Virus record (IMG/VR): IMGVR_UViG_3300027892_000003
Origin: a virus
Direction: 5' to 3' (one strand)
Length of the DNA stretch: 31,656 nt
The translations under genes were made by a program, and so were the position numbers. Every line of letters begins with the position of its first letter. The first letter of the stretch is position 1. The notes beneath the pieces are model-generated. The model saw only the letters and a program-made list of their open reading frames with translations. It searched no databases and was not told the origin of the DNA. This document shows positions 5,464-27,658 of this stretch, one piece after another.

Positions 5464-5529
5464 AACAGACGAAGCCCGGAAGCGTTGGAGCGCAACCGGG
5501 CCTCTAATCCACAACCTGTAGGAGCAGGC

Positions 5530-6558
5530 ATGGACTACCACCGGATTTACCGCGAATTCATTGCTGACCGCAAGGCCAACTCAAGGCCGGATGGCTACAC
5601 GGAACGACATCACATTTTGCCAAGGTCGCTTGGCGGTGACAATTCATCTAGCAATCTGATTGACCTGACTGCCGAGGATCACGTTTTTGCACACGTCTTG
5701 CTGGCCAAGATGCATGGCGGCGTCATGTGGGCGCCGGTCATTGCAATCTTTGGCCAGACGATAGCGCGGCGCATACCGACGCGGCGCGAAATCAGATTGT
5801 TTGCCCTAGCACGCCAGAAGTCGCGCGAGGCCATGAAGGGGGCGGGCAATCCGTTTTACGGTCGCCGGCACTCAACTGAACTGGTTGAGGCAATGCGCGA
5901 TGGCACGGTTTACGAGTTGTCTGACGGCAAGCGCGTTGTTGGCGGCACCCGGCATGAGCTGGTTGAAATAACCGGAGTGGATTTGCCTAACATAGCCCGC
6001 TTGGTGGTTGGCGCGCGCAAGAATGCTAAGGGTTGGTATTCAACCGCACACAATCCTGATGGGGTCAGAGGGTCGGCCCTACGCAGCCAAATGTGTCGCA
6101 GCAAAGATGTGGTTGCGCTTTGGCATCACGACGGTAGGCGCTGGGCTGGAACACGGGTTGAGTTCCGTGAGCAGTTTGGTGCGAGGCTATACTTTCAGTC
6201 TGGCGATGGCCATGTCCAAGGTTGGTATCGCAGCGCAGAACAAGCTGCGGGGCATGAGGCAAGGGTGAAGCTAAAAGCCATTGCTGCTGCTGAGGCTCGT
6301 GGCTGCATTGCTGGAAGTCGCAATCCGATGGCTGGCGCTGACCGTCGCAAGGACGCTGCCGTGCATCTGATTGGGCCAGGCGGCGCTGAATACAAAGGAT
6401 CGTTGAAGGCTTTTGCCGACAATCTCGGCATTGGCCCTTCACACTTCGCAACGGTCAAAAAAACCTTTGCGGGAAAGCGTTTTGTTGGTGGCTACCAAGT
6501 CAAAAGCTGGAAAGGCTGGCGCGCCGTCGCGTTCCGACAAGGTGATCCGCTTCATTGA
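5530..6558 (+). CDS. Free-standing HNH homing endonuclease with NUMOD3-like repeats
   Basis: AGGAG RBS before ATG 5530. HNH core: HHILPRSLGGDNSSSNLIDLTAEDHVFAH. NUMOD3-like motifs: GAGNPFYGRRHS and GSRNPMAGADRR. Hand counts on 60-nt samples give about 45 to 57 percent GC, below the flanking genes. It lies between terS and terL. Confidence 0.8.
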   Translation: MDYHRIYREFIADRKANSRPDGYTERHHILPRSLGGDNSSSNLIDLTAEDHVFAHVLLAKMHGGVMWAPVIAIFGQTIARRIPTRREIRLFALARQKSREAMKGAGNPFYGRRHSTELVEAMRDGTVYELSDGKRVVGGTRHELVEITGVDLPNIARLVVGARKNAKGWYSTAHNPDGVRGSALRSQMCRSKDVVALWHHDGRRWAGTRVEFREQFGARLYFQSGDGHVQGWYRSAEQAAGHEARVKLKAIAAAEARGCIAGSRNPMAGADRRKDAAVHLIGPGGAEYKGSLKAFADNLGIGPSHFATVKKTFAGKRFVGGYQVKSWKGWRAVAFRQGDPLH

Positions 6559-8032
6559 GCGATACTGCCTCACGCCCGAAGGAGCAGACGTTGGCAAGCC
6601 GCTTAAACTGGCTGATTTTCAGAAGCGGTTTATCAAGGAAATTTACGACAACCCGCACGGCACCCGCCGCGCTTATTTAAGCATCGGGCGCAAAAACGGG
6701 AAGTCGGGCCTCACAGCCGCGCTGTTGCTGGCGCACCTGGTCGGGCCAGAGGCCAAACAGAACAGCCAGATTGCCAGCGGCGCGCGATCAAGAGAGCAGG
6801 CCAGCGTCATCTTTGAACTGGCCAAGAAGATGGTGATGATGTCGCCGGAACTGTCCGGCATTGTTCGCATCATCCCTTCAGGCAAGCGCCTGATCGGCTT
6901 GCCCATGAACGTTGAATACCGGGCGCTTGCGGCTGAAGGCTCTACTGCACATGGGCTTTCTTTGGCGCTGGCCCTGCTGGACGAAGTTGGCCAGATCAAA
7001 GGGCCAAAAGACGATTTCGTTGACGCTATTACCACATCGCAAGGCGCACATGACGCGCCGCTTCTGATTGCCATTTCAACGCAAGCGCCGACCGATGGCG
7101 ATCTGTTTTCCATATGGCTTGATGACGCCAAAAACAGCCAGAACCCGGCGATTGTCTCGCACGTCTACAGTGCGCAGGACGATTGCGATCTGATGGACAA
7201 GGTGGCGTGGAAGGCTGCCAACCCGGCAATGGGTTTGTTTCGTTCTGAGGAAGATATTGCCGATCAGGCAGAGCGCGCGATGCGGCTGCCGTCTGAAGAA
7301 GCTACGTTCCGCGTTCTGACACTCAACCAGCGCGTCAACCCGTTCAGCCCGTTTTTGTCGCGGTCGGTTTGGGAAGCGAACAGCGCCGCGCCGGATGATG
7401 AGGCGTTCAGGTTTGGCGAAGTCTACGGCGGCCTTGATCTGTCGCAGACCACCGACTTGACCGCGTTTGTTTTGGTCGCGCGCTACAATGGCCGGTTTCA
7501 CGTCAAGCCGTGGTTCTTCATGGCCGAGGGGCTGGTGCCAGAAAGGGCGCGGGCTGACCGGGTGCCGTATGATGTTTGGCATAAGCAGGGGCTGATCGAA
7601 GCCACGCCGGGCCGGGTAGTGGCGCTGGATTGGGTGGCGGCCAAGATCGCAGAGGTAACGACCGGGCTGCCGGTAAAGGCCATAGCGTTTGACCGCTGGC
7701 GGATGCCGGGCCTGATGCTTGAGATTGACCGGCTAGGGCTGGCGTTGCCGTTGCAGGAATACGGCCAGGGTTACGCCAGCATGTCGCCGGCAGTCGCGGC
7801 GCTTGAAGAGGCGGCGTTGCAGGAATTGATGCAGCACGGTGGTCATCCGGTGCTGAATATGTGCGCCGGCAATGCGGTTGCGATCCGCGACCCTGCCGGG
7901 AACAGGAAACTCGATAAGGCGCGTTCGACAGGCCGCATTGACGGCATCGTGGCGCTTGCGATGGCAATGGGAGTGGCGGCTATGAACAAGGAAGAGCCAG
8001 CCGCCAGCACGCCCATGCTGCGGGTGCTGTAA
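6488..8032 (+). CDS. terL: Terminase large subunit (HK97 gp2-like, Terminase_1 family)
   Basis: From DKVIRFIERYCLTPEG...LSIGRKNGKSGL...LLDEVGQ...ISTQA...TLNQRV...FDRWR...RKLDK the sequence follows my recollection of HK97 gp2 almost motif for motif. There is no ATG start. Candidates are GTG 6542, GTG 6488, TTG 6482/6485 and TTG 6413, so the start is uncertain. The stop at 8032 is firm. Confidence 0.93.
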   Translation: MATKSKAGKAGAPSRSDKVIRFIERYCLTPEGADVGKPLKLADFQKRFIKEIYDNPHGTRRAYLSIGRKNGKSGLTAALLLAHLVGPEAKQNSQIASGARSREQASVIFELAKKMVMMSPELSGIVRIIPSGKRLIGLPMNVEYRALAAEGSTAHGLSLALALLDEVGQIKGPKDDFVDAITTSQGAHDAPLLIAISTQAPTDGDLFSIWLDDAKNSQNPAIVSHVYSAQDDCDLMDKVAWKAANPAMGLFRSEEDIADQAERAMRLPSEEATFRVLTLNQRVNPFSPFLSRSVWEANSAAPDDEAFRFGEVYGGLDLSQTTDLTAFVLVARYNGRFHVKPWFFMAEGLVPERARADRVPYDVWHKQGLIEATPGRVVALDWVAAKIAEVTTGLPVKAIAFDRWRMPGLMLEIDRLGLALPLQEYGQGYASMSPAVAALEEAALQELMQHGGHPVLNMCAGNAVAIRDPAGNRKLDKARSTGRIDGIVALAMAMGVAAMNKEEPAASTPMLRVL

Positions 8033-9342
8033 TGGGATTGTTTGACGCGATCCGCGATAACGTCTGGCCAACTGTCACGGTTGCCGACAAGCAGGCGGCC
8101 CAGGCTGCCCGCGAGGCGCGCTTGATGAACGCGGTGGTGCCGAGCGGCAGCGTGTCGCGCGGTTCTGAAGTGTTTATGGCCTTCACGGGCGACATGGGCG
8201 GCGGCCTGCCCACCCTGACTGAGCAGACGGCGCAGACGGTTGCGGCGATCAATGCCTGCGTGAAGGTGATCAGCGGCGCGATTGCTGTGCTGCCGATGAA
8301 CACGTTTCGCCGCCAGCAGGATGGTTCGCGCGAACAGATTTACGATGACGCACTTTGGTGGACGCTAAACGAAGAGTTTCACCCGCGCTGGAGTTCTGCG
8401 GCGGGCTGGACGTTTATGGCGCGGTCGCGGCTTCTGCACGGCGATGCGTTTGCCATCATTCAGCGCGATCCGCTGGGCCGCATCCGTCACCTGAAGCCGG
8501 TTCACCCGCGCCGCGTCGAGGTTTACGAAACGCCGCAGGATAGGCTGGTTTATGCGGTCTATCCGGTAAACGCCGCAATGGGCAGCGCCGTTGAGGTCTA
8601 CGACCAGGACGACATGCTGCACGTTCCAGGCGATGGCTTTGACGGCATCCGCACACCGTCGCCGCTTCGGTACGATATGCTTGTGGCCGGCGCTGGCGCG
8701 GTGGCGACACAGGAATACGCGGCCCGGTTCTTTGCCAACGGCGCGCGGCCTGACTTCGTGATTCAATCAACTTCTGGCGCGTCACGCCTGTCTGATGAGC
8801 AGTTCATCAACCTGAAAAAGCAGATCGACGAAGCGCACGGCGGCTATGCCAGGTCGCACCGTCCAATGCTGCTGGAAGGTGGGCTTGAGTTCAAGTCAAT
8901 CACAATGCCGTTTGAGGATGCCCAGTTGCTCCAGACGCGGCAGTTTCAGGTTGAGGAAATCGCCCGCATCTTTGGCGTGCCGCCGTTCATGATCGGCCAC
9001 AACGAAAAAACGACAAGCTGGGGCAGCGGCGTTGAAGCGATGGGGACGGGCTTCGTCCGCTACACACTGCGCACGCACCTCCACGCCTTCACCAACGAGA
9101 TCAATCGCAAGTTCTTCCGGCAAGTCAGCAAGTTTGCCGAGTTCGACACGACCGATCTTGAGCGCGCCGACACCCAAACGCTGTTCAACGCCTTCAGCGT
9201 GGCGCTGGGCGGCCAGGGCAAGCCCGGCTTCATGACCGAAAGCGAAGTGCGCCGGAAGCTCAATCTTCCTGAACTTGAAGGCGGCGAACAGATCGAGCGC
9301 GGCATGACCGCGTTGCAACAGACAGGAGCGGCCAATGCGTAA
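8032..9342 (+). CDS. Portal protein, HK97 family
   Basis: 436 aa with ARFFANGARPDFVI...EEIARIFGVPPFMIGH portal motifs. TAATG overlap with terL. Confidence 0.92.
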   Translation: MGLFDAIRDNVWPTVTVADKQAAQAAREARLMNAVVPSGSVSRGSEVFMAFTGDMGGGLPTLTEQTAQTVAAINACVKVISGAIAVLPMNTFRRQQDGSREQIYDDALWWTLNEEFHPRWSSAAGWTFMARSRLLHGDAFAIIQRDPLGRIRHLKPVHPRRVEVYETPQDRLVYAVYPVNAAMGSAVEVYDQDDMLHVPGDGFDGIRTPSPLRYDMLVAGAGAVATQEYAARFFANGARPDFVIQSTSGASRLSDEQFINLKKQIDEAHGGYARSHRPMLLEGGLEFKSITMPFEDAQLLQTRQFQVEEIARIFGVPPFMIGHNEKTTSWGSGVEAMGTGFVRYTLRTHLHAFTNEINRKFFRQVSKFAEFDTTDLERADTQTLFNAFSVALGGQGKPGFMTESEVRRKLNLPELEGGEQIERGMTALQQTGAANA

Positions 9343-19908: not shown

Positions 19909-20537
19909 TGCCGTTGGTTGATGCCACGCTGACAGCCACGCCAAACTCGGCCATCCTTTTCTTTGCTGACTTCGTTGATCTGCCGTTGCGCGGTGCCTAT
20001 GCGCCTTGCCCGATCCATGTGCCAACCGGCCTCACTGATAGCGACAGCGATTGCGCCGGCTTCACGTTTGACGTGATCGACAGCAAGGTGTTGCAAGTTG
20101 GCAATGTCAGTCACGATGACGGCGGCAGCGACACGCTTGGCTTCACGCTGCAAGCTGACCCTGCCGACACCGCGCTCATGTCAGCCATTGAAAACCCGGC
20201 GCTTTATGCTGGCCGGCGCGTGAGGGTGTGGCTGGCAATCTACAACACAGCAACCGTGACCAGCGGCGGCGCGACCGTTACTGAACTGCGCCCGCTTTAT
20301 CGGGGCTACATGGCGCAGCCGTCACAAGACGCAGACGCAGGCACCTATGTCATCACTATGTCGGCAGAGAATTATCTGTCGCTGTTAAGTGGCGCGCAGA
20401 ACCGCACTTATGTGCAGTCCAACCTTTACGATGCCGGCGATCTGTCCGGTGCGGTGCGCATGTCTGGCACCACGCCGGGGATGCCGGGTGGTGGCGGCAA
20501 CTTCCCGCAATGGGACGCTAGGGAGCGCGAACTGTGA
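19908..20537 (+). CDS. Minor tail / tail-tip protein
   Basis: TGATG coupling. 209 aa, second ORF after the tape measure gene. Called by position. Confidence 0.5.
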   Translation: MPLVDATLTATPNSAILFFADFVDLPLRGAYAPCPIHVPTGLTDSDSDCAGFTFDVIDSKVLQVGNVSHDDGGSDTLGFTLQADPADTALMSAIENPALYAGRRVRVWLAIYNTATVTSGGATVTELRPLYRGYMAQPSQDADAGTYVITMSAENYLSLLSGAQNRTYVQSNLYDAGDLSGAVRMSGTTPGMPGGGGNFPQWDAREREL

Positions 20538-20956
20538 GGCTGTCCACCCGTCACCCTGATTGGGAGCCGCGCCTTGCCGCGTGCGTCGAGGATTGGACGG
20601 CGCGCGAATACAGCTTTGCTTGGGGCTGCGATTGCGTGGCCTTCGTGCTGGCCGGCATTGAGGCGGTTGCAGATGAGCGGCTGACCTTTGACGGTGCCAC
20701 GCCTTACCGCAGCGCAGCGGGGCAAGGGCGCTGGCTCAAGGAGATGGGCTGGGGTTCACTGCTTGATGCTGCTGATGCCACGCTAGGGTCTCGCATTGGC
20801 CCGTTGCAGGCGCACCGAGGTGACGTGATCAGCGACGGCAGCGCGCTTGGCCTGATGACAGCAGCCGGGCCGCTTGTGTTCAGCGAGGGCGGCATGGTGG
20901 CGATTGAACGCGGCAGCATTGTGGCCGCTTGGCCGGTGGGGCGCTCCGATGGGTAA
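20534..20956 (+). CDS. Tail-associated NlpC/P60-like peptidase (GTA g14-like)
   Basis: FAWGCDCVAFVLAGI (Cys) and LQAHRGDVI (His) are spaced as in small phage NlpC/P60 proteins that precede J-like genes. GTGA coupling. Confidence 0.55.
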   Translation: MRLSTRHPDWEPRLAACVEDWTAREYSFAWGCDCVAFVLAGIEAVADERLTFDGATPYRSAAGQGRWLKEMGWGSLLDAADATLGSRIGPLQAHRGDVISDGSALGLMTAAGPLVFSEGGMVAIERGSIVAAWPVGRSDG

Positions 20957-23627
20957 GGCGGTCAAAGCCATTGTCGGCATTGCCATCACTGCGGTTGGCT
21001 TTGTAACCGGCAACGCCGCGCTGTTCCTCGCCGGCCTTTCAATTACGCAGAGCGGCCTCAAACAGGCGCTTGGCCCCTCTGTAAGGTCAACGCTCACCCC
21101 GTTTGACCCAAAGAGCATTAACCCTGATCCGGCATCACCGCGCAAACTGGTCTTTGGCCAGACCACGTTCCCGGTCGATCTGCGTTATGCCGAGCCAAGC
21201 GGCACCAATCAGGAATATATCGATTACATCTTTGCCCTGGCCGCGCACAAATCGGACGCCATCAGCGAAATCTACATTGAGGATGATCTTGCATGGACAG
21301 TGGGCGGGGGCGCTCAAGGCAAATACGTTGGTTATCTGACTGTCGAGGTCATTCTAGAAGCCGGCAGCGGCGCATATCACACCGTGAACGCCGGGACGAT
21401 CTGGGGCAGCAGCACGCGGATGACGGGCTGCACCACAATGAAGGTGCGCGTGAAGCGCAGCGACAACAGCAAGACAAGCCAATCACCGTTTAGCAGCGGA
21501 ATCAATGGGCGTTGGGCTGTCATCGGGCGCGGCATTCCGGTTTATGATCCGGCGCTTGACAGCACCGTGCCGTATGGGCCGACATTAAATTTAGACTTTA
21601 TTAACCAGACTTACGCTGCCGGTAGTGGCACACAGCGCGCCGCCAATCAAACCACATGGGCTTACACCGCAGGCACAGCGCGCGGCAACAATCCGGCGCT
21701 GCAACTGCTTACATATCTGTTGGGCTGGCGCATTGGCGGCGTTGTGTCGGTCGGCTGCGGCCTGCCTGTTGATACGATTGATTTGCCATCGTTCGCCATC
21801 GCTGCTGCGTTGTGCGATGAAAGCGTTGCGCTTGCCGCTGGTGGTTCGCAGCGCCGCTATGAAGCGGGCCGCGCCTTTGCTGACAGTGATGATCCGCTGG
21901 CCGTGATCCGCACGCTGCTGGACGCCATGAACGGCGAACTGGTTGATGACGGCGGTCGGCTTTCGCTGCGGCTTGCAGTCAACGATCTGACGCCTTCGTT
22001 CACAATTACCGATGATGATTTTGTCAGCGGCTATTCGTGGAAGCCTGCCGCACCGATTGAGCAACAACACACCGTGGTGCGTGGCCGTTACAGCGCACCA
22101 GGCGCAACTCTGTATGGCTTGGTAGATTATCCCGAAGTCGCCATTGCGCGCACGTCGATTGCCCCGCGTCCGCTGACCCTTGAACTTAGCGCCGTTCAAG
22201 ACCCGCGCCGTGCCGAGCGCATCGCCAAACAAGCGGCCCAGCGCAACCTCTATCAAGGCACGTTCGCCGTCACGCTAGGCGTGCGTGGCTGGTTGCTGCG
22301 GCGCAACATGGTGGTTGCTGTAACATCGTATGCGCGCGGGTGGACGGCCAAGCTGTTCCGCGTCCGGTCGCTGGGCTTCAATGCAGACGCGACGGTTGAG
22401 GTTGTGCTGCGGGAAGAAAATGCGGCCATCTATGCGTGGTCGGCCAGCGAGAGCGCACAGGTCACGCCGGTCGCGCCCGTCGTGTTTGACAGCCGGGCGG
22501 CTGCAAGCTGGCTGATGGCGGATATTGAGCCTGGTGCAGATGTTACTAGCGCCAACACTTCCGCCAACAGCAACGCGCTGGGCGGCACGCCAGCGGCAAC
22601 GGTGGCAACAAACATCACCACCGCCGGAACCACTGCGCTCTGGCCAAGTGTCACCGGCACAGGCCGCCCTGCTGATTATGCGGATGTGACCGCCGATGCG
22701 CTGGTGACGCTGCGCCGGGGTGATTGGCAATCCGGCGTCACCTATCTGCGCGGGCAAAGCGTGGTGCGCAACCGCAGCAGTTATGTGTCGCTGGTGAATC
22801 ACAGCAGCAGTGCCGGCAACGGCCCGCCCGGCGCAAACTGGGGCCTGGTCGCCGATGGGGGCGTTGATGGCACAAACGGCACGAACGGGGCAAATGGTGC
22901 GCCTGGGGCCAACGGCACTAACGGCACGAACGGGACGCCCGGAACCAATGGCATTGACGGCATTGACGGCATAGACGGAAAGCTGGTTGAATTTATCTGG
23001 CGGCGCGCGGCGTCGGTTCCTGCCACGCCCACAGGCAACGGCATCCCGGCAGGCTGGAGCGACAACCCGCCCGCTGGCAGCGATCCGCTGTGGATGAGCC
23101 GAGGCAAACAGGAACTTGATGGCACGCTGATCGGCACATGGTCTGCGCCGATCCGCCATGATGGCCCGCCTGGTGCAACAGGTGCAACCGGGCCTGCTGG
23201 GGCCAACGGCGCAAATGGTGCGCCCGGCGCAACTGGTGCAACAGGCGCAACTGGCGCGCAAGGGCCAACCGGCGTTGCAGCTCCTCCGATCAAATCACTC
23301 TCAACCGGCGCGGCACAGCTTGACCCGATCCGCTTGGTGAATGGCCAGACGGTGACGGCAGCGGCTGAACTCTATCTCAACACTGGCGGCGTGTCTGGCG
23401 TGTGCAGCTTAACATTGCAGATCAGTGAATCCGGCGCGGGCAGTTGGGCGACGATGACCAGCGGCACTGTGACCGACAGCCAGCCCACCAGTGAGGCGGT
23501 TGAACTAGTGATCACGGGCGCAACCTTCACCAACAGCGGCGCAGATCGGCTGTTTGATATTCGCGCAATCTCCACGCGGCAGTCTCGTTCAGTGAACGTG
23601 CCGCTGTCCTATGTGCGAGTGATTTGA
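20949..23627 (+). CDS. Host specificity / central tail fibre protein (J-like) with collagen-like repeats
   Basis: 892 aa from ATG 20949. Hydrophobic N-terminal segment (AIVGIAITAVGFVTGNAALFLAGL). J-like core (FGQTTFPVDLRYAEPSG...YIFALAAHKSDAISEIYIEDD). CBM5/12-like motif (WQSGVTYLRGQSVVRNRSSYVSLVNH...PPGANW). Two Gly-X-Y blocks. Confidence 0.85.
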   Translation: MGKAVKAIVGIAITAVGFVTGNAALFLAGLSITQSGLKQALGPSVRSTLTPFDPKSINPDPASPRKLVFGQTTFPVDLRYAEPSGTNQEYIDYIFALAAHKSDAISEIYIEDDLAWTVGGGAQGKYVGYLTVEVILEAGSGAYHTVNAGTIWGSSTRMTGCTTMKVRVKRSDNSKTSQSPFSSGINGRWAVIGRGIPVYDPALDSTVPYGPTLNLDFINQTYAAGSGTQRAANQTTWAYTAGTARGNNPALQLLTYLLGWRIGGVVSVGCGLPVDTIDLPSFAIAAALCDESVALAAGGSQRRYEAGRAFADSDDPLAVIRTLLDAMNGELVDDGGRLSLRLAVNDLTPSFTITDDDFVSGYSWKPAAPIEQQHTVVRGRYSAPGATLYGLVDYPEVAIARTSIAPRPLTLELSAVQDPRRAERIAKQAAQRNLYQGTFAVTLGVRGWLLRRNMVVAVTSYARGWTAKLFRVRSLGFNADATVEVVLREENAAIYAWSASESAQVTPVAPVVFDSRAAASWLMADIEPGADVTSANTSANSNALGGTPAATVATNITTAGTTALWPSVTGTGRPADYADVTADALVTLRRGDWQSGVTYLRGQSVVRNRSSYVSLVNHSSSAGNGPPGANWGLVADGGVDGTNGTNGANGAPGANGTNGTNGTPGTNGIDGIDGIDGKLVEFIWRRAASVPATPTGNGIPAGWSDNPPAGSDPLWMSRGKQELDGTLIGTWSAPIRHDGPPGATGATGPAGANGANGAPGATGATGATGAQGPTGVAAPPIKSLSTGAAQLDPIRLVNGQTVTAAAELYLNTGGVSGVCSLTLQISESGAGSWATMTSGTVTDSQPTSEAVELVITGATFTNSGADRLFDIRAISTRQSRSVNVPLSYVRVI
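22860..22979 (+). repeat. Collagen-like Gly-X-Y block 1 (13 triplets; ends in 3 x ggcattgac-type 9-bp repeats)
   Basis: GVDGTNGTNGANGAPGANGTNGTNGTPGTNGIDGIDGIDG, read from codons in frame with 20949. Confidence 0.9.
23163..23279 (+). repeat. Collagen-like Gly-X-Y block 2 (13 triplets)
   Basis: GPPGATGATGPAGANGANGAPGATGATGATGAQGPTGVA, read from codons in frame. Confidence 0.9.
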
Positions 23628-23687
23628 CGCAGTTACCGACCATGAAAGGTGCAGCGCGGCGCACCTATCCACAACATGGAGAGCGCG

Positions 23688-23891
23688 ATGACGGCACAGC
23701 CCAGCCATGCCGATTTGGCAGTCTCAATTGCGCGCTTGGAAGAACGCCTCGATGCGCTTGACGCCAAGATCACGCCGGTCAGCGAGGTCTATCAAGCGGC
23801 GAAAGTGGGCGGCAATTTGCTGAAATGGCTGGTGGGTATGCTGGCAGCCATTGCGGGGATTGCGGCGTTTATTTGGGGTGCGCCCAAGTGA
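23688..23891 (+). CDS. Small coiled-coil protein with a C-terminal transmembrane helix
   Basis: GGAGAG RBS before ATG 23688. Coiled-coil segment LAVSIARLEERLDALDAKI, then hydrophobic segment LLKWLVGMLAAIAGIAAFIWG. Confidence 0.55.
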   Translation: MTAQPSHADLAVSIARLEERLDALDAKITPVSEVYQAAKVGGNLLKWLVGMLAAIAGIAAFIWGAPK

Positions 23892-25060
23892 GCATTACGC
23901 TTGCGCGCAATTTGACAGAGGTTGATCCAGCGCAGGATGCCGCGATTGCTGATCTGGCTGAACGCCTTGGCAGCATGAACAAAGCCGCTGCCGAGTTGAA
24001 CGTCAGCCGCGCAGCAGTGCAGAACGCCTGCCATCGGCATCAGCGCCGCACTGGTGACTTCACAGGCGGCATCCCTGCCTCGCCGGAACGTGACGGCGGC
24101 GGTGCCTATGTCGTCAAAGGGGTTTCGACCTACTTTGACGCGGACGGCAACCAGCGCGGGCAGTGGGTAAAAACCAGCCTCGATCAAGAGCGCCGTGATG
24201 AGGCAATCCGCGCTGCGTTTGAGGCGATGGCTGCTGACTTGCCGCGCGCCGATCCTGTTGCGTCGCCTAGCGTCACGTCTGCGCTGCTGTGCAACGTCTA
24301 CACTTTTACCGATTACCACATGGGGATGCTGGCCTGGCACAAAGAGGGCGGCGCTGATTGGGATATCGGCATTGCCTCGCGGGTGCTTGACGGTGCGTTT
24401 GCCGCTATGGTTGCCGGTGCGCCTGCTGCTGATACGTGCGTGATCGCACAGCTTGGCGACTTCCTGCATTATGACGGGCTGGTTGCCGCCACCCCTACCA
24501 GTGGCCACCCGCTTGACGCAGACGGGCGCTTTTCCAAGATGGTGAGCGCCACCATCAAGGCGCTGCGTGGGTTGGTTGACCGGGCATTGCTGAAGCATCG
24601 CCGCGTCATTGTTCTGATGGCCGAGGGCAACCACGATTTGGCATCGTCGGTATGGCTGCGGCACATGTTCAAGGCGCTCTACGAACATGAGCCGCGCGTT
24701 GAGGTCATCGACAGCGAACTGCCTTATTACGCCTTTGAGTTTGGCTCGATCATGCTGGGCTGGCACCATACGCACCTTTCCAAAATGGACGGCCTGACAA
24801 GCATATTTGCTGCGCAATTCCGGGCAATGTGGGGGCGGTGCAGCAAGGTTTATCTGCATACCGGGCATCTGCATCACCGCCGCCTGAAGGAAGATGGCGG
24901 GGCGATTGTGGAGCAGCACCCAACGCTATCGGCAAAGGACGCCTACAGCGCGCGCGGCGGCTATCATGCCGAGCGGGCGGCCATTGGCATCACATACCAC
25001 GCACAGTTTGGCGAAGTCGCGCGCAACACCGTGCGGCCCGAAATGCTGGAGGCAGCATGA
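23888..25060 (+). CDS. HTH-fused calcineurin-fold metallophosphoesterase (Mre11/SbcD-like motif set)
   Basis: The GTG start overlaps the upstream TGA (GTGA). N-terminal HTH-like segment MNKAAAELNVSRAAVQNACHRH. The five MPE motifs then appear in order: FTDYHMG, LGDFLHYD, AEGNHD, GWHHTH, HTGHLHH. The long antisense ORF 23792..24919 has no motifs. Confidence 0.75.
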   Translation: MSITLARNLTEVDPAQDAAIADLAERLGSMNKAAAELNVSRAAVQNACHRHQRRTGDFTGGIPASPERDGGGAYVVKGVSTYFDADGNQRGQWVKTSLDQERRDEAIRAAFEAMAADLPRADPVASPSVTSALLCNVYTFTDYHMGMLAWHKEGGADWDIGIASRVLDGAFAAMVAGAPAADTCVIAQLGDFLHYDGLVAATPTSGHPLDADGRFSKMVSATIKALRGLVDRALLKHRRVIVLMAEGNHDLASSVWLRHMFKALYEHEPRVEVIDSELPYYAFEFGSIMLGWHHTHLSKMDGLTSIFAAQFRAMWGRCSKVYLHTGHLHHRRLKEDGGAIVEQHPTLSAKDAYSARGGYHAERAAIGITYHAQFGEVARNTVRPEMLEAA

Positions 25061-25233
25061 ACACGCTCGACGCCCTGGACGCGCTGCACAAAGCGTATGA
25101 AGCCCGCGATGCCGCGCGTGACCGCGCTGTGGCCGAGGTCGAGCGCCAGTTCGCCGGCATTATCAAGCGCAGGCAGCAGGAATTTCAGGACGCCATCAGG
25201 CGCGCGACGGGGGCCGACACATGCAATGGATGA
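25057..25233 (+). CDS. Small coiled-coil hypothetical protein (58 aa)
   Basis: ATGA overlap with the upstream stop. Translation starts MNTLDALDALHKAYEARDAARDRAVAEVERQFAGIIKRRQQEF... Confidence 0.5.
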   Translation: MNTLDALDALHKAYEARDAARDRAVAEVERQFAGIIKRRQQEFQDAIRRATGADTCNG

Positions 25234-25721
25234 CAGAAGCGCGCCGCCACATTGGGCTGCGCGAGGTGCCGGGCGGTGCCAGCAACCCGGTAATCATGTC
25301 GTGGGGCAACCGTCTTGGCGCTAAGGTGCTGGGCATTGCTTACGGCAACGATGGGGTGCCTTGGTGCGGTCTGTTTGTAGCTCACTGCATCACCCAGGCT
25401 GGCTTGAAACCGCCGCCCATTGCGATCCGTGCGAAGGCGTGGGCGTCTTGGGGCGATAGCGTCGGCACGACTGCCACGCGCCCGCCGCTGGGCTGTGTCG
25501 CCGTGTTTGGCCGCGACGGTGGCGGTCATGTAGGGTTTGTCGAAAGCGTCAACACGGACGGCAGTCTGAACATCCTTGGCGGCAACCAAGGCGATGCGGT
25601 CAACGTGCGCCGTTTTCCGCGCGCCCGGCTGCTTGATCTGCGCTGGCCCAAGGGCGTGGCGCGGTCATCGCCTGCACCGTGGGCGGGCGCTGCGGCGGCA
25701 GACACAACGGGAGAAGGCTGA
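25230..25721 (+). CDS. Endolysin, CHAP/NlpC-P60-like (TIGR02594-type)
   Basis: GLREVPGGASNPVIMSW...DGVPWCGLFVAHC...GCVAVFGRDGGGHVGFV...LGGNQGDAV matches the TIGR02594 pattern with catalytic Cys and His. ATG 25230 gives an ATGA overlap with the upstream stop; ATG 25221 is also possible. Confidence 0.85.
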   Translation: MTEARRHIGLREVPGGASNPVIMSWGNRLGAKVLGIAYGNDGVPWCGLFVAHCITQAGLKPPPIAIRAKAWASWGDSVGTTATRPPLGCVAVFGRDGGGHVGFVESVNTDGSLNILGGNQGDAVNVRRFPRARLLDLRWPKGVARSSPAPWAGAAAADTTGEG

Positions 25722-25924
25722 TGATTGAATACATCCGCGCCAGGTTGCGCGAAAAATCTACTTACGCCGGCTTTGTCGCAATTGCGTTGGGCGTCTCGCT
25801 GCTAATCATTCCGATGATCATGCCGGCTGATGCTGCCGCGCTGACCAGCCAAAACGTGCAATGGCTGATCACCGCGCTGTTTGCGTCTGGCCTGGGCGGC
25901 ATCATCTGGCATCGCAAGGTCTAA
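25721..25924 (+). CDS. Holin (two transmembrane helices)
   Basis: GGGAGAAGG RBS. 67 aa with two hydrophobic helices (YAGFVAIALGVSLLIIPMIM and VQWLITALFASGLGGIIW) and a basic C-terminus. It lies between the endolysin and spanin genes. Confidence 0.7.
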   Translation: MIEYIRARLREKSTYAGFVAIALGVSLLIIPMIMPADAAALTSQNVQWLITALFASGLGGIIWHRKV

Positions 25925-25926
25925 CC

Positions 25927-26298
25927 ATGTTCATGCCAGCGTGGGCAATCCGGCTTGCACCATATGCCGCTGGCATCTTGCTGGCGGTGGGGGCGTATTT
26001 CTGGGCATACAGCAACGGCAGGCAGGCAGAGCGGGCGAAGTGGCAGGCGCGTGAGATCGCCGCTGTAGCAGCCGCACAGGCCAAGAGCGCGGCATTGCAA
26101 GCCCAAGTCGATGCTGCGGGCGTGGCACTGTCTGAACAGGCGGCTGCGATTGATCGGATAACCCATGTTCAGAAACTGAACACAAGGACGTTTTATGTTC
26201 AGAATCCTGCTGCCAACGTCGCTTGCCTGTCTGCTGATCGGCTGCGGGCCATCGCGGACAGTGACACCGCCGTTACGGCTGCCAGCACCACCCAATGA
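25927..26298 (+). CDS. i-spanin (Rz-like)
   Basis: N-terminal TM helix (LAPYAAGILLAVGAYFWAY) followed by an Ala/Gln-rich coiled coil. The o-spanin ORF overlaps its 3-prime end. Confidence 0.75.
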   Translation: MFMPAWAIRLAPYAAGILLAVGAYFWAYSNGRQAERAKWQAREIAAVAAAQAKSAALQAQVDAAGVALSEQAAAIDRITHVQKLNTRTFYVQNPAANVACLSADRLRAIADSDTAVTAASTTQ

Positions 26299-26440
26299 GG
26301 CGATGCAGGCGTGCCAGATACCCGCGCTGATGGGCGGGTCTGCTGCTGATGTGGAAGCGGCGCTGATTGAGCGCGGGGCAGCTATTGCGGCGTGCGAGGC
26401 AAGGCGGGCGGCGTTGGTGCGGGCGTGGCCTAAGCCGTGA
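26195..26440 (+). CDS. o-spanin (Rz1-like outer-membrane lipoprotein)
   Basis: Signal peptide with lipobox (MFRILLPTSLACLLIGC), Pro-rich mature part. It overlaps the i-spanin gene by 104 nt in another frame. Confidence 0.8.
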   Translation: MFRILLPTSLACLLIGCGPSRTVTPPLRLPAPPNEAMQACQIPALMGGSAADVEAALIERGAAIAACEARRAALVRAWPKP

Positions 26441-26446
26441 AATTAT

Positions 26447-26478
26447 CCGAGAGGCTCCAGTGGTTCAATATGAACCAC
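26447..26478. repeat. attP arm element P: CCGAGAGG-N-GTGGTTCAATATGAACCAC (perfect 8-3-8 palindrome at 26460..26478)
   Basis: A direct imperfect copy lies at 26646..26675 on the other side of the tRNA-derived core. Confidence 0.6.
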
Positions 26479-26490
26479 CCCGCGCGGGCT

Positions 26491-26556
26491 TCCACGGTGC
26501 ATCCGGCGTTTTTTGCAAAAATCGTCCACGGTAAAGCGGCTTTTCTCCACGGTGCG
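26491..26556. repeat. Three direct TCCACGGT repeats (26491, 26525, 26546): candidate arm-type integrase or accessory-factor sites
   Basis: Read directly. All three lie between the left arm palindrome and the tRNA-derived core. Confidence 0.45.
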
Positions 26557-26573
26557 CGGCGCAGGGACGCCCA

Positions 26574-26618
26574 TTTACACCGAGAGGGTCGGGGGTTCGA
26601 AACCCTCAGCGCCCACCA
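26574..26618 (+). other. attP core: 3-prime half of a tRNA-Val(UAC) gene (anticodon loop to CCA), not a complete tRNA
   Basis: Reading 5-prime to 3-prime: TTTACAC anticodon loop (UAC), CGAGA, variable GGGTC, T-arm GGGGG-TTCGAAA-CCCTC, acceptor AGCGCCC, discriminator A, CCA. Upstream bases cannot form the anticodon stem, D-arm or 5-prime acceptor strand. Confidence 0.75.
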
Positions 26619-26645
26619 ATGCCGCCAGTGACTTAGCCGATTCTG

Positions 26646-26675
26646 CCGAGAGGGGCGGGTGGTTCCAATGAACCA
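26646..26675. repeat. attP arm element P-prime: CCGAGAGG-N-GGTGGTTCCAATGAACCA
   Basis: Imperfect direct copy of 26447..26478, positioned between the core and the integrase stop codon. Confidence 0.6.
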
Positions 26676-26683
26676 AAACCCGT

Positions 26684-27658
26684 CTAAAACTCTAGCGCAT
26701 TGGCCGCAGGAACCATGAAAGACGGGCTGTAGCGACCGTAATGTGTCTCGGTCGTTCTGGTGCTGGTGTGGCCCAGGAATTGCGCAATCAGCTGCATCGG
26801 CACGTTTGCTTGAGCCATCCAGACGCCAGACGTGTGGCGAAGCACATGCGGGCTGCACACTATGCCGGCGCGGCGCGATGCATTGGCAAACGCCTTCTTG
26901 ATGTTGGCCACCGGCTGCCCGGCGTATTCGATGACGTGATCGGTCAACCGGCCTTCGTATGCCTCCTCCAGCGCGGCGCGCGCGCGGCTGTTCATCGGCA
27001 CCACAACCCGGCGTTTGTTCGTCTGGTGACGGCCTGCCGGGCGAAAGTCGATTGTCCCGGTCGCCATGTCCACGCGATCCCACGTCAGGTCCAGGATGGC
27101 CGACATACGCGCGCCGGTCGTTACCGCCAGCACAATGAACAATTGAGCATGGGGCGCGTCGGTCGCGGCAAGCAGGGCGTTCACCTGATCTGGTGTTAGC
27201 CATCGGTCGCGAGGCGGGCTGGCGGGCGGCGTCCACAGCTTCGGCGCGGCTTGGCCGAAGTGAAAGCGCAGGCAGGCGCGCAGTAATTCCAGCTCGGTCT
27301 TGATGGTGCTGGGGCGCTTGCCGGCGCGCTTTCTGACGGCGGCGTATGCACGGCAATCGTCGGGCGTGATGGCTTTGCCCAGGCGGTGGCCGAAATGTGG
27401 CTCTAGCGCCGTCCAGATCGACGTGAAGCGGTCTGTGCGGGCCACCTCTGTCAGCCGGTCGCGGACATAGGCGGGCCACAGATCGGCTACCCGTTCGCTG
27501 GGCGCTGCGTTTCGTGCGTTCCAGATTGAACGAGCGCGGGCCTCTGCGAGGCCCCGGTCATCCGTCCCAAGCGCGACACGAATGCGGCCTCGTTCGCCAT
27601 CGGTGTAGGCGAGGCTCCATTTGTCTCGGTGCTGGACGAGCCTGTATTCTGCTGACAC
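26684..27658 (-). CDS. int: Tyrosine integrase (phage integrase family)
   Basis: Catalytic signature ARMSAILDLTWDRVD...HVLRHTSGVWMAQ...FLGHTSTRTTETHYGRY (R...HxxR...H...Y). The N-terminus YRLVQHRDKWSLAYTDGERGRIRVALGT is typical of the arm-binding domain. Adjacent to the tRNA-derived attP. Confidence 0.93.
   Translation of the reverse strand: MSAEYRLVQHRDKWSLAYTDGERGRIRVALGTDDRGLAEARARSIWNARNAAPSERVADLWPAYVRDRLTEVARTDRFTSIWTALEPHFGHRLGKAITPDDCRAYAAVRKRAGKRPSTIKTELELLRACLRFHFGQAAPKLWTPPASPPRDRWLTPDQVNALLAATDAPHAQLFIVLAVTTGARMSAILDLTWDRVDMATGTIDFRPAGRHQTNKRRVVVPMNSRARAALEEAYEGRLTDHVIEYAGQPVANIKKAFANASRRAGIVCSPHVLRHTSGVWMAQANVPMQLIAQFLGHTSTRTTETHYGRYSPSFMVPAANALEF

Follow-up and report, generated by a model that had tools for sequence, protein, structure and literature searches.

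The 31,656-nucleotide (nt) viral DNA stretch analysed here (IMG/VR record IMGVR_UViG_3300027892_000003; hereafter the window) carries, between 23,688 and 25,233, three overlapping open reading frames (ORFs A, B and C), and the middle one encodes a member of the phage protein family PHROG 704 in which a helix-turn-helix (HTH) domain is fused to an Mre11-style metallophosphoesterase (MPE). Judging from its sequence and a structural model, ORF B may be a DNA-tethered, metal-dependent nuclease or phosphodiesterase made in lytic growth, accessory to phage DNA metabolism or to an attack on host DNA, a reading to which we give a probability of roughly 55%. This reading draws on the Mre11-type metal ligands, the putatively DNA-binding HTH, the DNA enzymes encoded beside the gene in other phages, and published work on the phage proteins Bas01_0050 and Gp48. 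ORFs A and C are small, lineage-specific proteins held beside ORF B by synteny, and with it they form no recognisable defence or exclusion system. The family was already known as a very common phage family without a characterised function; new here are the window member, the lineage-restricted ORFs A and C, and an exchange of the catalytic domain among sister phages.

23688..23891, plus strand: ORF A, 67 amino acids (aa); GGAGAG 5 nt 5' of the ATG
23888..25060, plus strand: ORF B, GTG start, 390 aa; PHROG 704 HTH-MPE
25057..25233, plus strand: ORF C, 58 aa; GGAGG 4-5 nt 5' of the start

ORF B matched the profile phrog_704 ("DNA repair exonuclease") with an E-value of 4.5e-119, its residues 18-387 covering profile positions 10-389 of 390. 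By this sequence match it is a full-length, ordinary member of the family (T1 gp16 / Rtp61 / Bas01_0050 type), although a first-pass annotation made from the DNA letters had not recognised the cassette as any named system. The family name is a prediction, and the experimental data found for it are genetic only, namely escape from the reverse-transcriptase defence DRT7 and toxicity. Named members include Rtp gp61 (recorded as "highly similar to gp16 of phage T1"), Era103 gp26 ("similar to p16 of T1"), Bas01_0050 and the "metallophosphoesterase" of Rhodobacter RcD-type phages. Their identity to ORF B is 39-46%, with tblastn coverage of 93-99% (Bas01_0050: 39.9% identity over 93% of the length). 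They resemble ORF B in length, in the succession of HTH, hairpin and MPE, and in the invariant motifs, and differ from it in nothing essential; the window copy is set apart by lying in a temperate siphovirus, in the slot between fibre and lysis genes, beside two lineage-specific small ORFs.

Domain architecture and catalytic motifs

Motifs and predicted fold indicate that ORF B is an HTH domain fused to an Mre11-style MPE. The first-pass annotation had read it as an N-terminal HTH followed by five Mre11/SbcD-style motifs, and motif alignments, an AlphaFold2 (AF2) model and Foldseek searches agree with that description.

23927..24052, plus strand: N-terminal three-helix HTH domain, residues 14-55 (AF2 helices 14-27, 30-37 and 41-55)
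24107..24235, plus strand: conserved beta-hairpin and long helix, residues 74-116, family-specific (K77-G-x-S-T81, G87, Q92-W93-x-K95, D99)
24278..25033, plus strand: MPE catalytic domain, residues 131-382
24311-24319, plus strand: MPE motif I, D142xH144
24455-24469, plus strand: MPE motif II, GDFLH
24626-24637, plus strand: MPE motif III, GNHD
24764-24775, plus strand: MPE motif IV, HHTH
24863-24874, plus strand: MPE motif V, GHLH

ORF B contains all five motifs of the calcineurin-like metallophosphoesterase superfamily, which supply the ligands of a dinuclear metal centre: D142xH144, G190-D191-F-L-H194, E246-G-N248-H249-D250, H293/H294/H296 and G326-H327-x-H329. The earlier proposal had been made to depend on the conservation of these ligands among homologues; every ligand motif is invariant in an alignment of ORF B with 14 homologues (44-79% identity), and in a 74-sequence alignment the motifs are likewise invariant, save for H293 and H327, whose conservation is 90% or more. 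A loop between motifs II and III, T202-P-x-x-x-H207-x-L-D210-x-D-x-R214-F-x-K217 (24491-24538), is almost invariant across the family and is the least confident region of the AF2 model (confidence score, pLDDT, below 50 at residues 203-211). This loop may be a family-specific substrate-binding element.

The AF2 model, computed from the 74-sequence alignment, had a mean pLDDT of 82.9 and comprised a helix bundle (14-55), a disordered linker, the hairpin and helix (76-116; strands 76-83 and 89-96, helix 97-116) and an alpha/beta sandwich (131-382). In a Foldseek search of the PDB, Methanocaldococcus jannaschii Mre11 ranked first (E 5.6e-8, TM-scores 0.38/0.45), closely followed by Vps29, YfcE, PolD DP1, Rv0805 and LpxH, and the best 50 of the 129 matches at E <= 1e-3 all have the metallophosphoesterase fold. 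The search of viral models (BFVD) returned many phage "calcineurin-like phosphoesterases" together with "DNA polymerase II small subunit" or DP1-like proteins. The MPE assignment thus comes from the motifs, the fold and PHROGs. Pfam gave ORF B no Metallophos (PF00149) match above the gathering score, with sub-threshold matches in two family members (Era103 gp26, E 0.0089; CPX, E 0.0026), and only a weak HTH_1 match at residues 26-47; Pfam and NCBIfam together gave no match above threshold for ORFs A, B or C. No MPE came up when the PDB was searched by sequence, whether the query was ORF B or the family profile; the only matches were weak ones to HTHs, in the profile search to GerE, MarR and Lrp-type HTHs at the N-terminus. 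In addition, many homologues of ORF B have precomputed HTH Pfam matches.

Archaeal Mre11 proteins carry the ligand pattern DxH, GDxxH, GNHD, H and GHxH, and the ligand set of ORF B fits it. The nuclease-type histidines of motifs II and III, H194 and H249, are invariant in both the 15- and the 74-sequence alignments, and we take them to be the counterparts of the corresponding Mre11 histidines. ORF B differs from Mre11/SbcD in its additional N-terminal HTH and hairpin, in the low TM-scores of the fold match, and in ending, in the AF2 model, right after the MPE core, with no capping domain. No sequence homology to Mre11/SbcD was detected by Pfam or by PDB sequence and profile searches, and no gene for a Rad50/SbcC partner was found among the ~20 window ORFs scanned.

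Distribution and gene neighbourhoods of PHROG 704

Of 50,697 phage records, 2,089 matched ORF B in a tblastn search, 1,668 of them over 80% or more of the protein; grouped by organism name, the matches fell to Escherichia (559), Klebsiella (468), Salmonella (373), Vibrio (254) and many other names. The locus itself is thus ordinary, one more copy of a gene present in ~4% of sequenced phages. A profile search of 1.84 billion cluster representatives recovered 5,969 clusters (50% identity) at E <= 1e-3, and among the matches listed, nearly all family clusters have lengths of 380-400 aa. The family deserves notice for this breadth of ~6,000 clusters, for its conserved architecture and for the lack of any published biochemistry that we could find. 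Among the matches listed, most belong to Drexlerviridae, Jerseyvirus, Autographiviridae and Campylobacter myoviruses. These are virulent phages, as are most phages of the named members, which argues against a role as a prophage exclusion gene or moron.

In several virulent phages the gene lies among genes for DNA enzymes. The order in Era103 and Bonnellvirus is exonuclease, endonuclease VII, MPE, "polynucleotide kinase" (a HAD_PNKP-type phosphatase) and ligase; in MEW1 the MPE is followed by a HAD_PNKP phosphatase-domain protein, and in Campylobacter phage CPX a ligase is followed by the MPE. In Rtp and Bas01, a helicase and a VRR-NUC gene are followed further downstream by MPE, holin, endolysin and spanin, and RcD phages carry holin, endolysin, spanins and MPE in this order. 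The "polynucleotide kinase" genes beside the MPE in Era103, Bonnellvirus and MEW1 (loci L002 6196-6693, L003 6279-6806 and L007 4948-5442) start with a DxDGT HAD motif, and the MEW1 product matches the PNKP phosphatase domain PF25109, not a kinase, in the part tested; the public annotation of these genes as kinases is probably misleading.

For a broader survey, 160 related loci from genomes and viral contigs were reduced to 116 non-redundant groups at 85% identity, a sample biased towards relatives of the window protein. An endolysin gene lay within 3 kb of the MPE gene in 57 of the 116 groups, and in 42 of the 87 groups with full flanks. These endolysins form six clusters, four of which are confirmed by Pfam (Phage_lysozyme, GH108, GH19 and Peptidase_M15_4), whereas the basis for the CHAP cluster is the endolysin of the window itself and the amidase cluster was assigned by eye only. 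Other recurrent neighbours are DUF3310, deoxynucleoside monophosphate (dNMP) kinase, HD hydrolase, terminase and integrase genes. The genomic loci in this survey were all in phage or prophage-like contexts, and none was a defence island. The recurrence beside lysis cassettes, the end-processing neighbours in T7-like phages and the precise catalytic-domain swap described below offer handles on function.

Proposed function

In the mechanism that we consider most probable, the HTH would tether ORF B to DNA, where the catalytic domain would cut phosphodiesters as a metal-dependent nuclease or DNA-end-processing enzyme. The protein would be made together with the late and lysis genes during lytic growth and would act as an accessory, non-structural factor of phage DNA metabolism, its possible tasks being damage to host DNA and the processing of DNA ends or of intermediates in replication and recombination. 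The presence of the nucleic-acid nucleases Mre11 and PolD DP1 near the top of the PDB matches speaks for such an activity. The endolysin genes within 3 kb of about half of the surveyed loci are consistent with late co-expression. Family membership, architecture, conservation and gene context are established; what the enzyme acts on, when it is made and what it does for the phage are inferred.

Genetic data on a family member come from a 2026 preprint on the DRT7/UG10 system, in which spontaneous escape mutants of phage Bas01 had missense changes or frameshifts in Bas01_0050, described as "a nucleic acid-targeting phosphoesterase"; the protein was toxic in E. coli, making co-expression with DRT7 impossible, and phage lambda escaped DRT7 through gam (bioRxiv 10.64898/2026.02.16.706125). 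The individual Bas01_0050 mutations are not listed in the supplement of this preprint. The escape mutants, the toxicity and the involvement of lambda gam together indicate that the family is not needed to form plaques, harms the host and is tied to host DNA-end and RecBCD biology. The viability of the frameshift mutants also bears out the first-pass view of ORF B as an accessory gene. By analogy with Bas01_0050, ORF B is probably harmful to its host and detectable by host immunity of the DRT7 kind, and PHROG 704 as a whole is newly implicated by genetics as a phage determinant of sensitivity to DRT7/UG10.

A second precedent is Gp48 of mycobacteriophage A10ZJ24, a stand-alone MPE with motif-dependent phosphodiesterase and DNA nuclease activities, which is toxic and degrades host DNA, thereby blunting host defence (PMC12287305). 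Gp48 and its relative Bxb1 gp47 resemble the ORF B family in being phage-encoded, host-toxic MPEs; however, they belong to PHROG 221 rather than 704, are ~255 aa long, lack an HTH and are expressed early. An hhalign comparison of the family profile with Bxb1 gp47 gave a probability of 9% over 18 columns, covering the GNHD motif only. In the RefSeq record of Bxb1, gp46 bears the label of recombination directionality factor and gp47 (8021-8788 in locus L181) that of "metallo-phosphoesterase". We take the published recombination directionality factor of Bxb1 to be gp47, the phosphoesterase-like protein; on that view, an additional, non-catalytic role of a phage MPE would have a precedent.

Several points weigh against a DNA nuclease made in lytic growth. 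The substrate is read from fold, motifs and neighbours only, and the literature searches found no published biochemical activity for any PHROG 704 member. The Foldseek scores of non-nuclease MPEs (Vps29, YfcE, LpxH and Rv0805) lie near that of Mre11, whose own TM-scores are low, and both the Mre11 capping domain and, among the window ORFs scanned, a Rad50/SbcC gene are missing. The promoter scan reported below uses an E. coli consensus for a GC-rich host, so that expression in the lysogen is possible. Finally, ORFs A and C persist across the catalytic-domain swap and could be functional partners of ORF B after all.

Catalytic-domain exchange and the standing of ORFs A and C

24040..25051, plus strand: segment exchanged in sister phages for a PHROG 7339 MPE domain (blastn breakpoints, tblastn, BLASTP, PHROGs)

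Two sister phages, L176 and L178, keep an ORF A that is 97-99% and an ORF C that is 79-97% identical to the window's. L176 also shares the endolysin (97.5% identity) and the holin (100%), and L178 has a different endolysin and a holin of 81% identity. Their middle gene, in contrast, has only the first ~57 residues in common with ORF B (the HTH, 58% identity by BLASTP), and its remainder belongs to phrog_7339 (also "DNA repair exonuclease"; E 6e-28 and 1e-30), with the motifs GDPH, GD, GNHD and HxH. Nucleotide homology between the window and L176 ends at 24039 and resumes at 25051 (blastn), indicating that the replaced piece is exactly the catalytic domain; the swapped stretches are 24040-25051 in the window, 3353-4249 in L176 and 3354-4259 in L178. 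Identity between the two phrog_7339 alleles is only 51%. Between the catalytic domains of ORF B and the phrog_7339 protein, no similarity was detectable by BLASTP or hhalign, and the HTH alone aligned when the family profile was compared with the L176 protein. The PHROG 7339 gene therefore occupies the identical slot between ORFs A and C and shares the HTH and MPE-like motifs, but its catalytic domain is unrelated to that of ORF B by these methods. Within this one lineage, the sequence comparisons mark the middle gene as a precise domain-level recombination hot spot in an otherwise syntenic trio.

ORF A is predicted to consist of a helical or coiled N-terminal segment and a single C-terminal transmembrane helix, and hence to be tail-anchored; its one hydrophobic segment (approximately residues 43-66, Kyte-Doolittle) agrees with the transmembrane helix proposed in the first-pass annotation. 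ORF C is predicted, by inspection of its sequence, to be a small helical protein, and both are lineage-specific. Neither ORF gave a tblastn match at E <= 0.1 in the 50,697 phage records, and a megablast search of 20000-27000 against the same records was also without a match. When ORFs A and C were themselves searched against viral contigs, close relatives of the window phage were the only matches, and in a metagenome scan ORF A hit a single short contig. Across the 116 loci, iterated hidden Markov model searches found A-like proteins (a coiled segment with a C-terminal transmembrane helix, directly upstream of the MPE) only in the window lineage, L133 and L034, with L155 marginal, and C-like proteins only in the window lineage, L133 and L090; when searches with ORF C itself are included, its relatives are confined to the window lineage, L133 and L090/L175. 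ORFs A and C thus accompany ~3-4 of the 116 non-redundant MPE loci and are missing from ~97%. Elsewhere, the neighbours of the MPE gene are mixed, including holins, spanins, GNAT-like and small Cys-rich proteins, portal, DUF3310, endolysins and terminase.

Because ORFs A and C have no matches in the phage records and stand beside so few MPE loci, the trio is, as far as sequence comparison goes, a case of lineage synteny and not a conserved mobile system. The trio stays together within the window's own lineage and does not exist beyond it. Translationally coupled small ORFs downstream of the MPE gene were considered across the loci as a sign of an inhibitor partner and set aside, spurious overlaps being too frequent in GC-rich DNA to count unless conservation tests back them.

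It is nevertheless conceivable, if rather unlikely, that ORF A, the HTH-MPE and ORF C form a functional unit in which ORF C, the membrane-anchored ORF A or both would restrain or localise a toxic nuclease through its HTH N-terminus. Such a unit would explain the retention of ORF A, the HTH and ORF C while PHROG 704 and PHROG 7339 catalytic domains are exchanged. If so, host sensors such as DRT7 could be what drives the domain exchange, and PHROG 704 would be a widespread effector perturbing host DNA or RecBCD, an enzymatic counterpart to the role of lambda Gam.

Alternative functions

Among functions other than DNA cleavage, healing of broken ends is unlikely. ORF B would here be a 2',3'-cyclic phosphodiesterase or 3'-phosphatase restoring RNA or DNA termini for religation, for example in tRNA cut by anticodon nucleases, with the MPE domain of bacterial Pnkp as the analogue. 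The use of a dinuclear MPE domain for end healing by Clostridium thermocellum Pnkp counts in its favour (PMC2190708). The adjacency of the MPE gene to a HAD_PNKP-type phosphatase and an ATP-dependent ligase in several virulent phages fits the idea as well, but the window ORFs scanned include neither a ligase nor a kinase. The second motif of lambda-phosphatase and Pnkp-type enzymes is GDxxDRG, whereas that of ORF B is GDFLH. Moreover, an HTH would be unexpected in an RNA repair enzyme, and a repair phosphatase is not obviously toxic in E. coli.

It is decidedly improbable that ORF B hydrolyses cyclic (oligo)nucleotides or other immune messengers, such as those of CBASS, Pycsar, type III CRISPR or Thoeris. 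A DNA-binding HTH kept family-wide at lengths of ~380-400 aa, neighbours that are DNA enzymes and toxicity in E. coli would all be unexpected of a signal degrader, and loss of the gene helps Bas01 against DRT7 rather than hurting it. What speaks for it is the presence of cyclic-nucleotide phosphodiesterases in the MPE superfamily, with Rv0805 among the fold matches, and the trading of the catalytic domain between unrelated MPE families in one lineage, a pattern typical of an arms race.

The first-pass annotation had placed the region in a slot typical of morons, superinfection-exclusion genes and anti-defence genes, and had named an exclusion or defence module as one possible role. Between 23000 and 26800, no plus-strand sigma-70-like promoter was found with an E. 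coli consensus, the host being a GC-rich bacterium, and no intrinsic terminator was found; the GC content of the cassette (58-63%) lies inside the range of its flanks. Given the missing promoter and terminator, the unshifted GC content and the overlapping start and stop codons, the cassette looks like part of the late operon rather than an autonomously expressed moron. The only intergenic hairpin, at 23646-23665, was considered as a regulatory element and rejected, as it was no better than shuffled sequences (z 0.78).

An exclusion or defence module expressed from the prophage, in which ORF A would anchor a DNA-binding nuclease to the membrane and ORF C would control its attack on superinfecting DNA, is very improbable. 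The chained and syntenic trio, the retention of ORFs A and C despite the catalytic-domain swap, the predicted membrane anchor of ORF A and a slot near the prophage end would suit it. However, the MPE family is dominated by virulent phages, expression signals and a GC signature are lacking in the scan just described, ORFs A and C are missing from most MPE loci and from all the phage records searched, and PADLOC 2.0 gave no match for A, B or C at E <= 0.01. With the neighbourhood survey also returning prophage-like contexts and no defence islands, neither the moron and exclusion role nor the defence module is upheld.

A regulatory role, with ORF B acting by virtue of its HTH as a transcription factor or controlling lysis timing or late genes and the MPE serving as sensor or effector, hardly seems credible: the gene does recur beside lysis cassettes in unrelated groups (Rtp/Bas01, Rhodobacter RcD, 57 of 116 loci, six endolysin clusters) and the annotation of some homologues names sigma-70 region 4, but the catalytic ligands are invariant, the MPE is far more constrained than the HTH, the gene lies away from lysis genes in Autographiviridae and Campylobacter phages, and Bas01 frameshift mutants still make plaques.

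Gene layout and the window phage

The three ORFs are chained by stop/start overlaps, GTGA at 23888-23891 (A/B) and ATGA at 25057-25060 (B/C), with a further ATGA at 25230-25233 at the end of ORF C, and a Shine-Dalgarno-like purine-rich stretch precedes each of the three start codons. Against close relatives (15-50% of synonymous sites differing), the ratio of nonsynonymous to synonymous differences (pN/pS) was 0.04-0.23 for ORF A and 0.10-0.28 for ORF C, and within ORF B 0.02 for the MPE domain and 0.21 for the HTH. These low values indicate that all three are real protein-coding genes under purifying selection, in agreement with the coordinates, the overlaps and the position between tail fibre and lysis genes that the first-pass annotation had given for the 67-, 390- and 58-aa ORFs. 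Homology supports the plus-strand frame throughout, so that a 375-aa ORF on the minus strand, at 23792-24919, is in all likelihood a shadow ORF.

20946..23627, plus strand: tail fibre / host-specificity protein, directly upstream (Pfam Phage-tail_3, Collagen, CBM_5_12)
25221..26440, plus strand: lysis cassette, directly downstream of ORF C
25221-25721, plus strand: CHAP/TIGR02594 endolysin
25721-25924, plus strand: holin-like ORF with two transmembrane segments
25861-26298, plus strand: Rz-like
26195-26440, plus strand: Rz1 lipoprotein

The overlap sequence proposed to link ORF C to the endolysin, ATGA at 25230, is present, but the endolysin probably starts at the ATG at 25221 (MQWMTEARR), as its relatives begin with MRWLTEARQ; this would give a 13-nt overlap with ORF C in place of the ATGA.

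By its gene content, the window is a complete-looking temperate HK97-like siphovirus. Its order begins with a repressor, a RecE/YqaJ-like exonuclease, an integrase with an Xis-like gene, a primase/helicase and a VRR-NUC-like gene, continues with TerS, HNH, TerL, portal, protease, major capsid protein, tail genes, tape measure, Dit and fibre, and ends with ORFs A, B and C, endolysin, holin, Rz/Rz1, a tRNA 3'-end fragment and the integrase. The tRNA-like fragment, TTTACACCGAGAGGGTCGGGGGTTCGAAACCCTCAGCGCCCACCA at ~26574-26618 on the plus strand, resembles a tRNA gene in its 3' part, with T-arm, acceptor strand and CCA; neither ARAGORN nor Rfam called it. It probably forms the attP core, at a distance of 66 nt from the integrase gene. 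As a full tRNA is lacking, the window may represent the attP form of a phage genome rather than an integrated prophage. Between the genes for the two terminase subunits, small and large, there is an HNH/homing-endonuclease-like gene (5485-6558; phrog_655, E 1.6e-36).

The genes flanking the trio show mosaicism of their own. The fibre (20946-23627) contains collagen-like repeats and a CBM_5_12-like segment, and its C-terminal part is mosaic relative to the sister phages, nucleotide homology being patchy past ~22690. The endolysin slot is mosaic as well: the window, L176 and L179 carry a CHAP/TIGR02594 endolysin, and L009 (11388-11765), L178 (4474-4851) and L133 (5450-5827) carry in the same slot a 125-aa Tlde1_dom / phrog_24118 protein, which adjoins a related holin and spanins.

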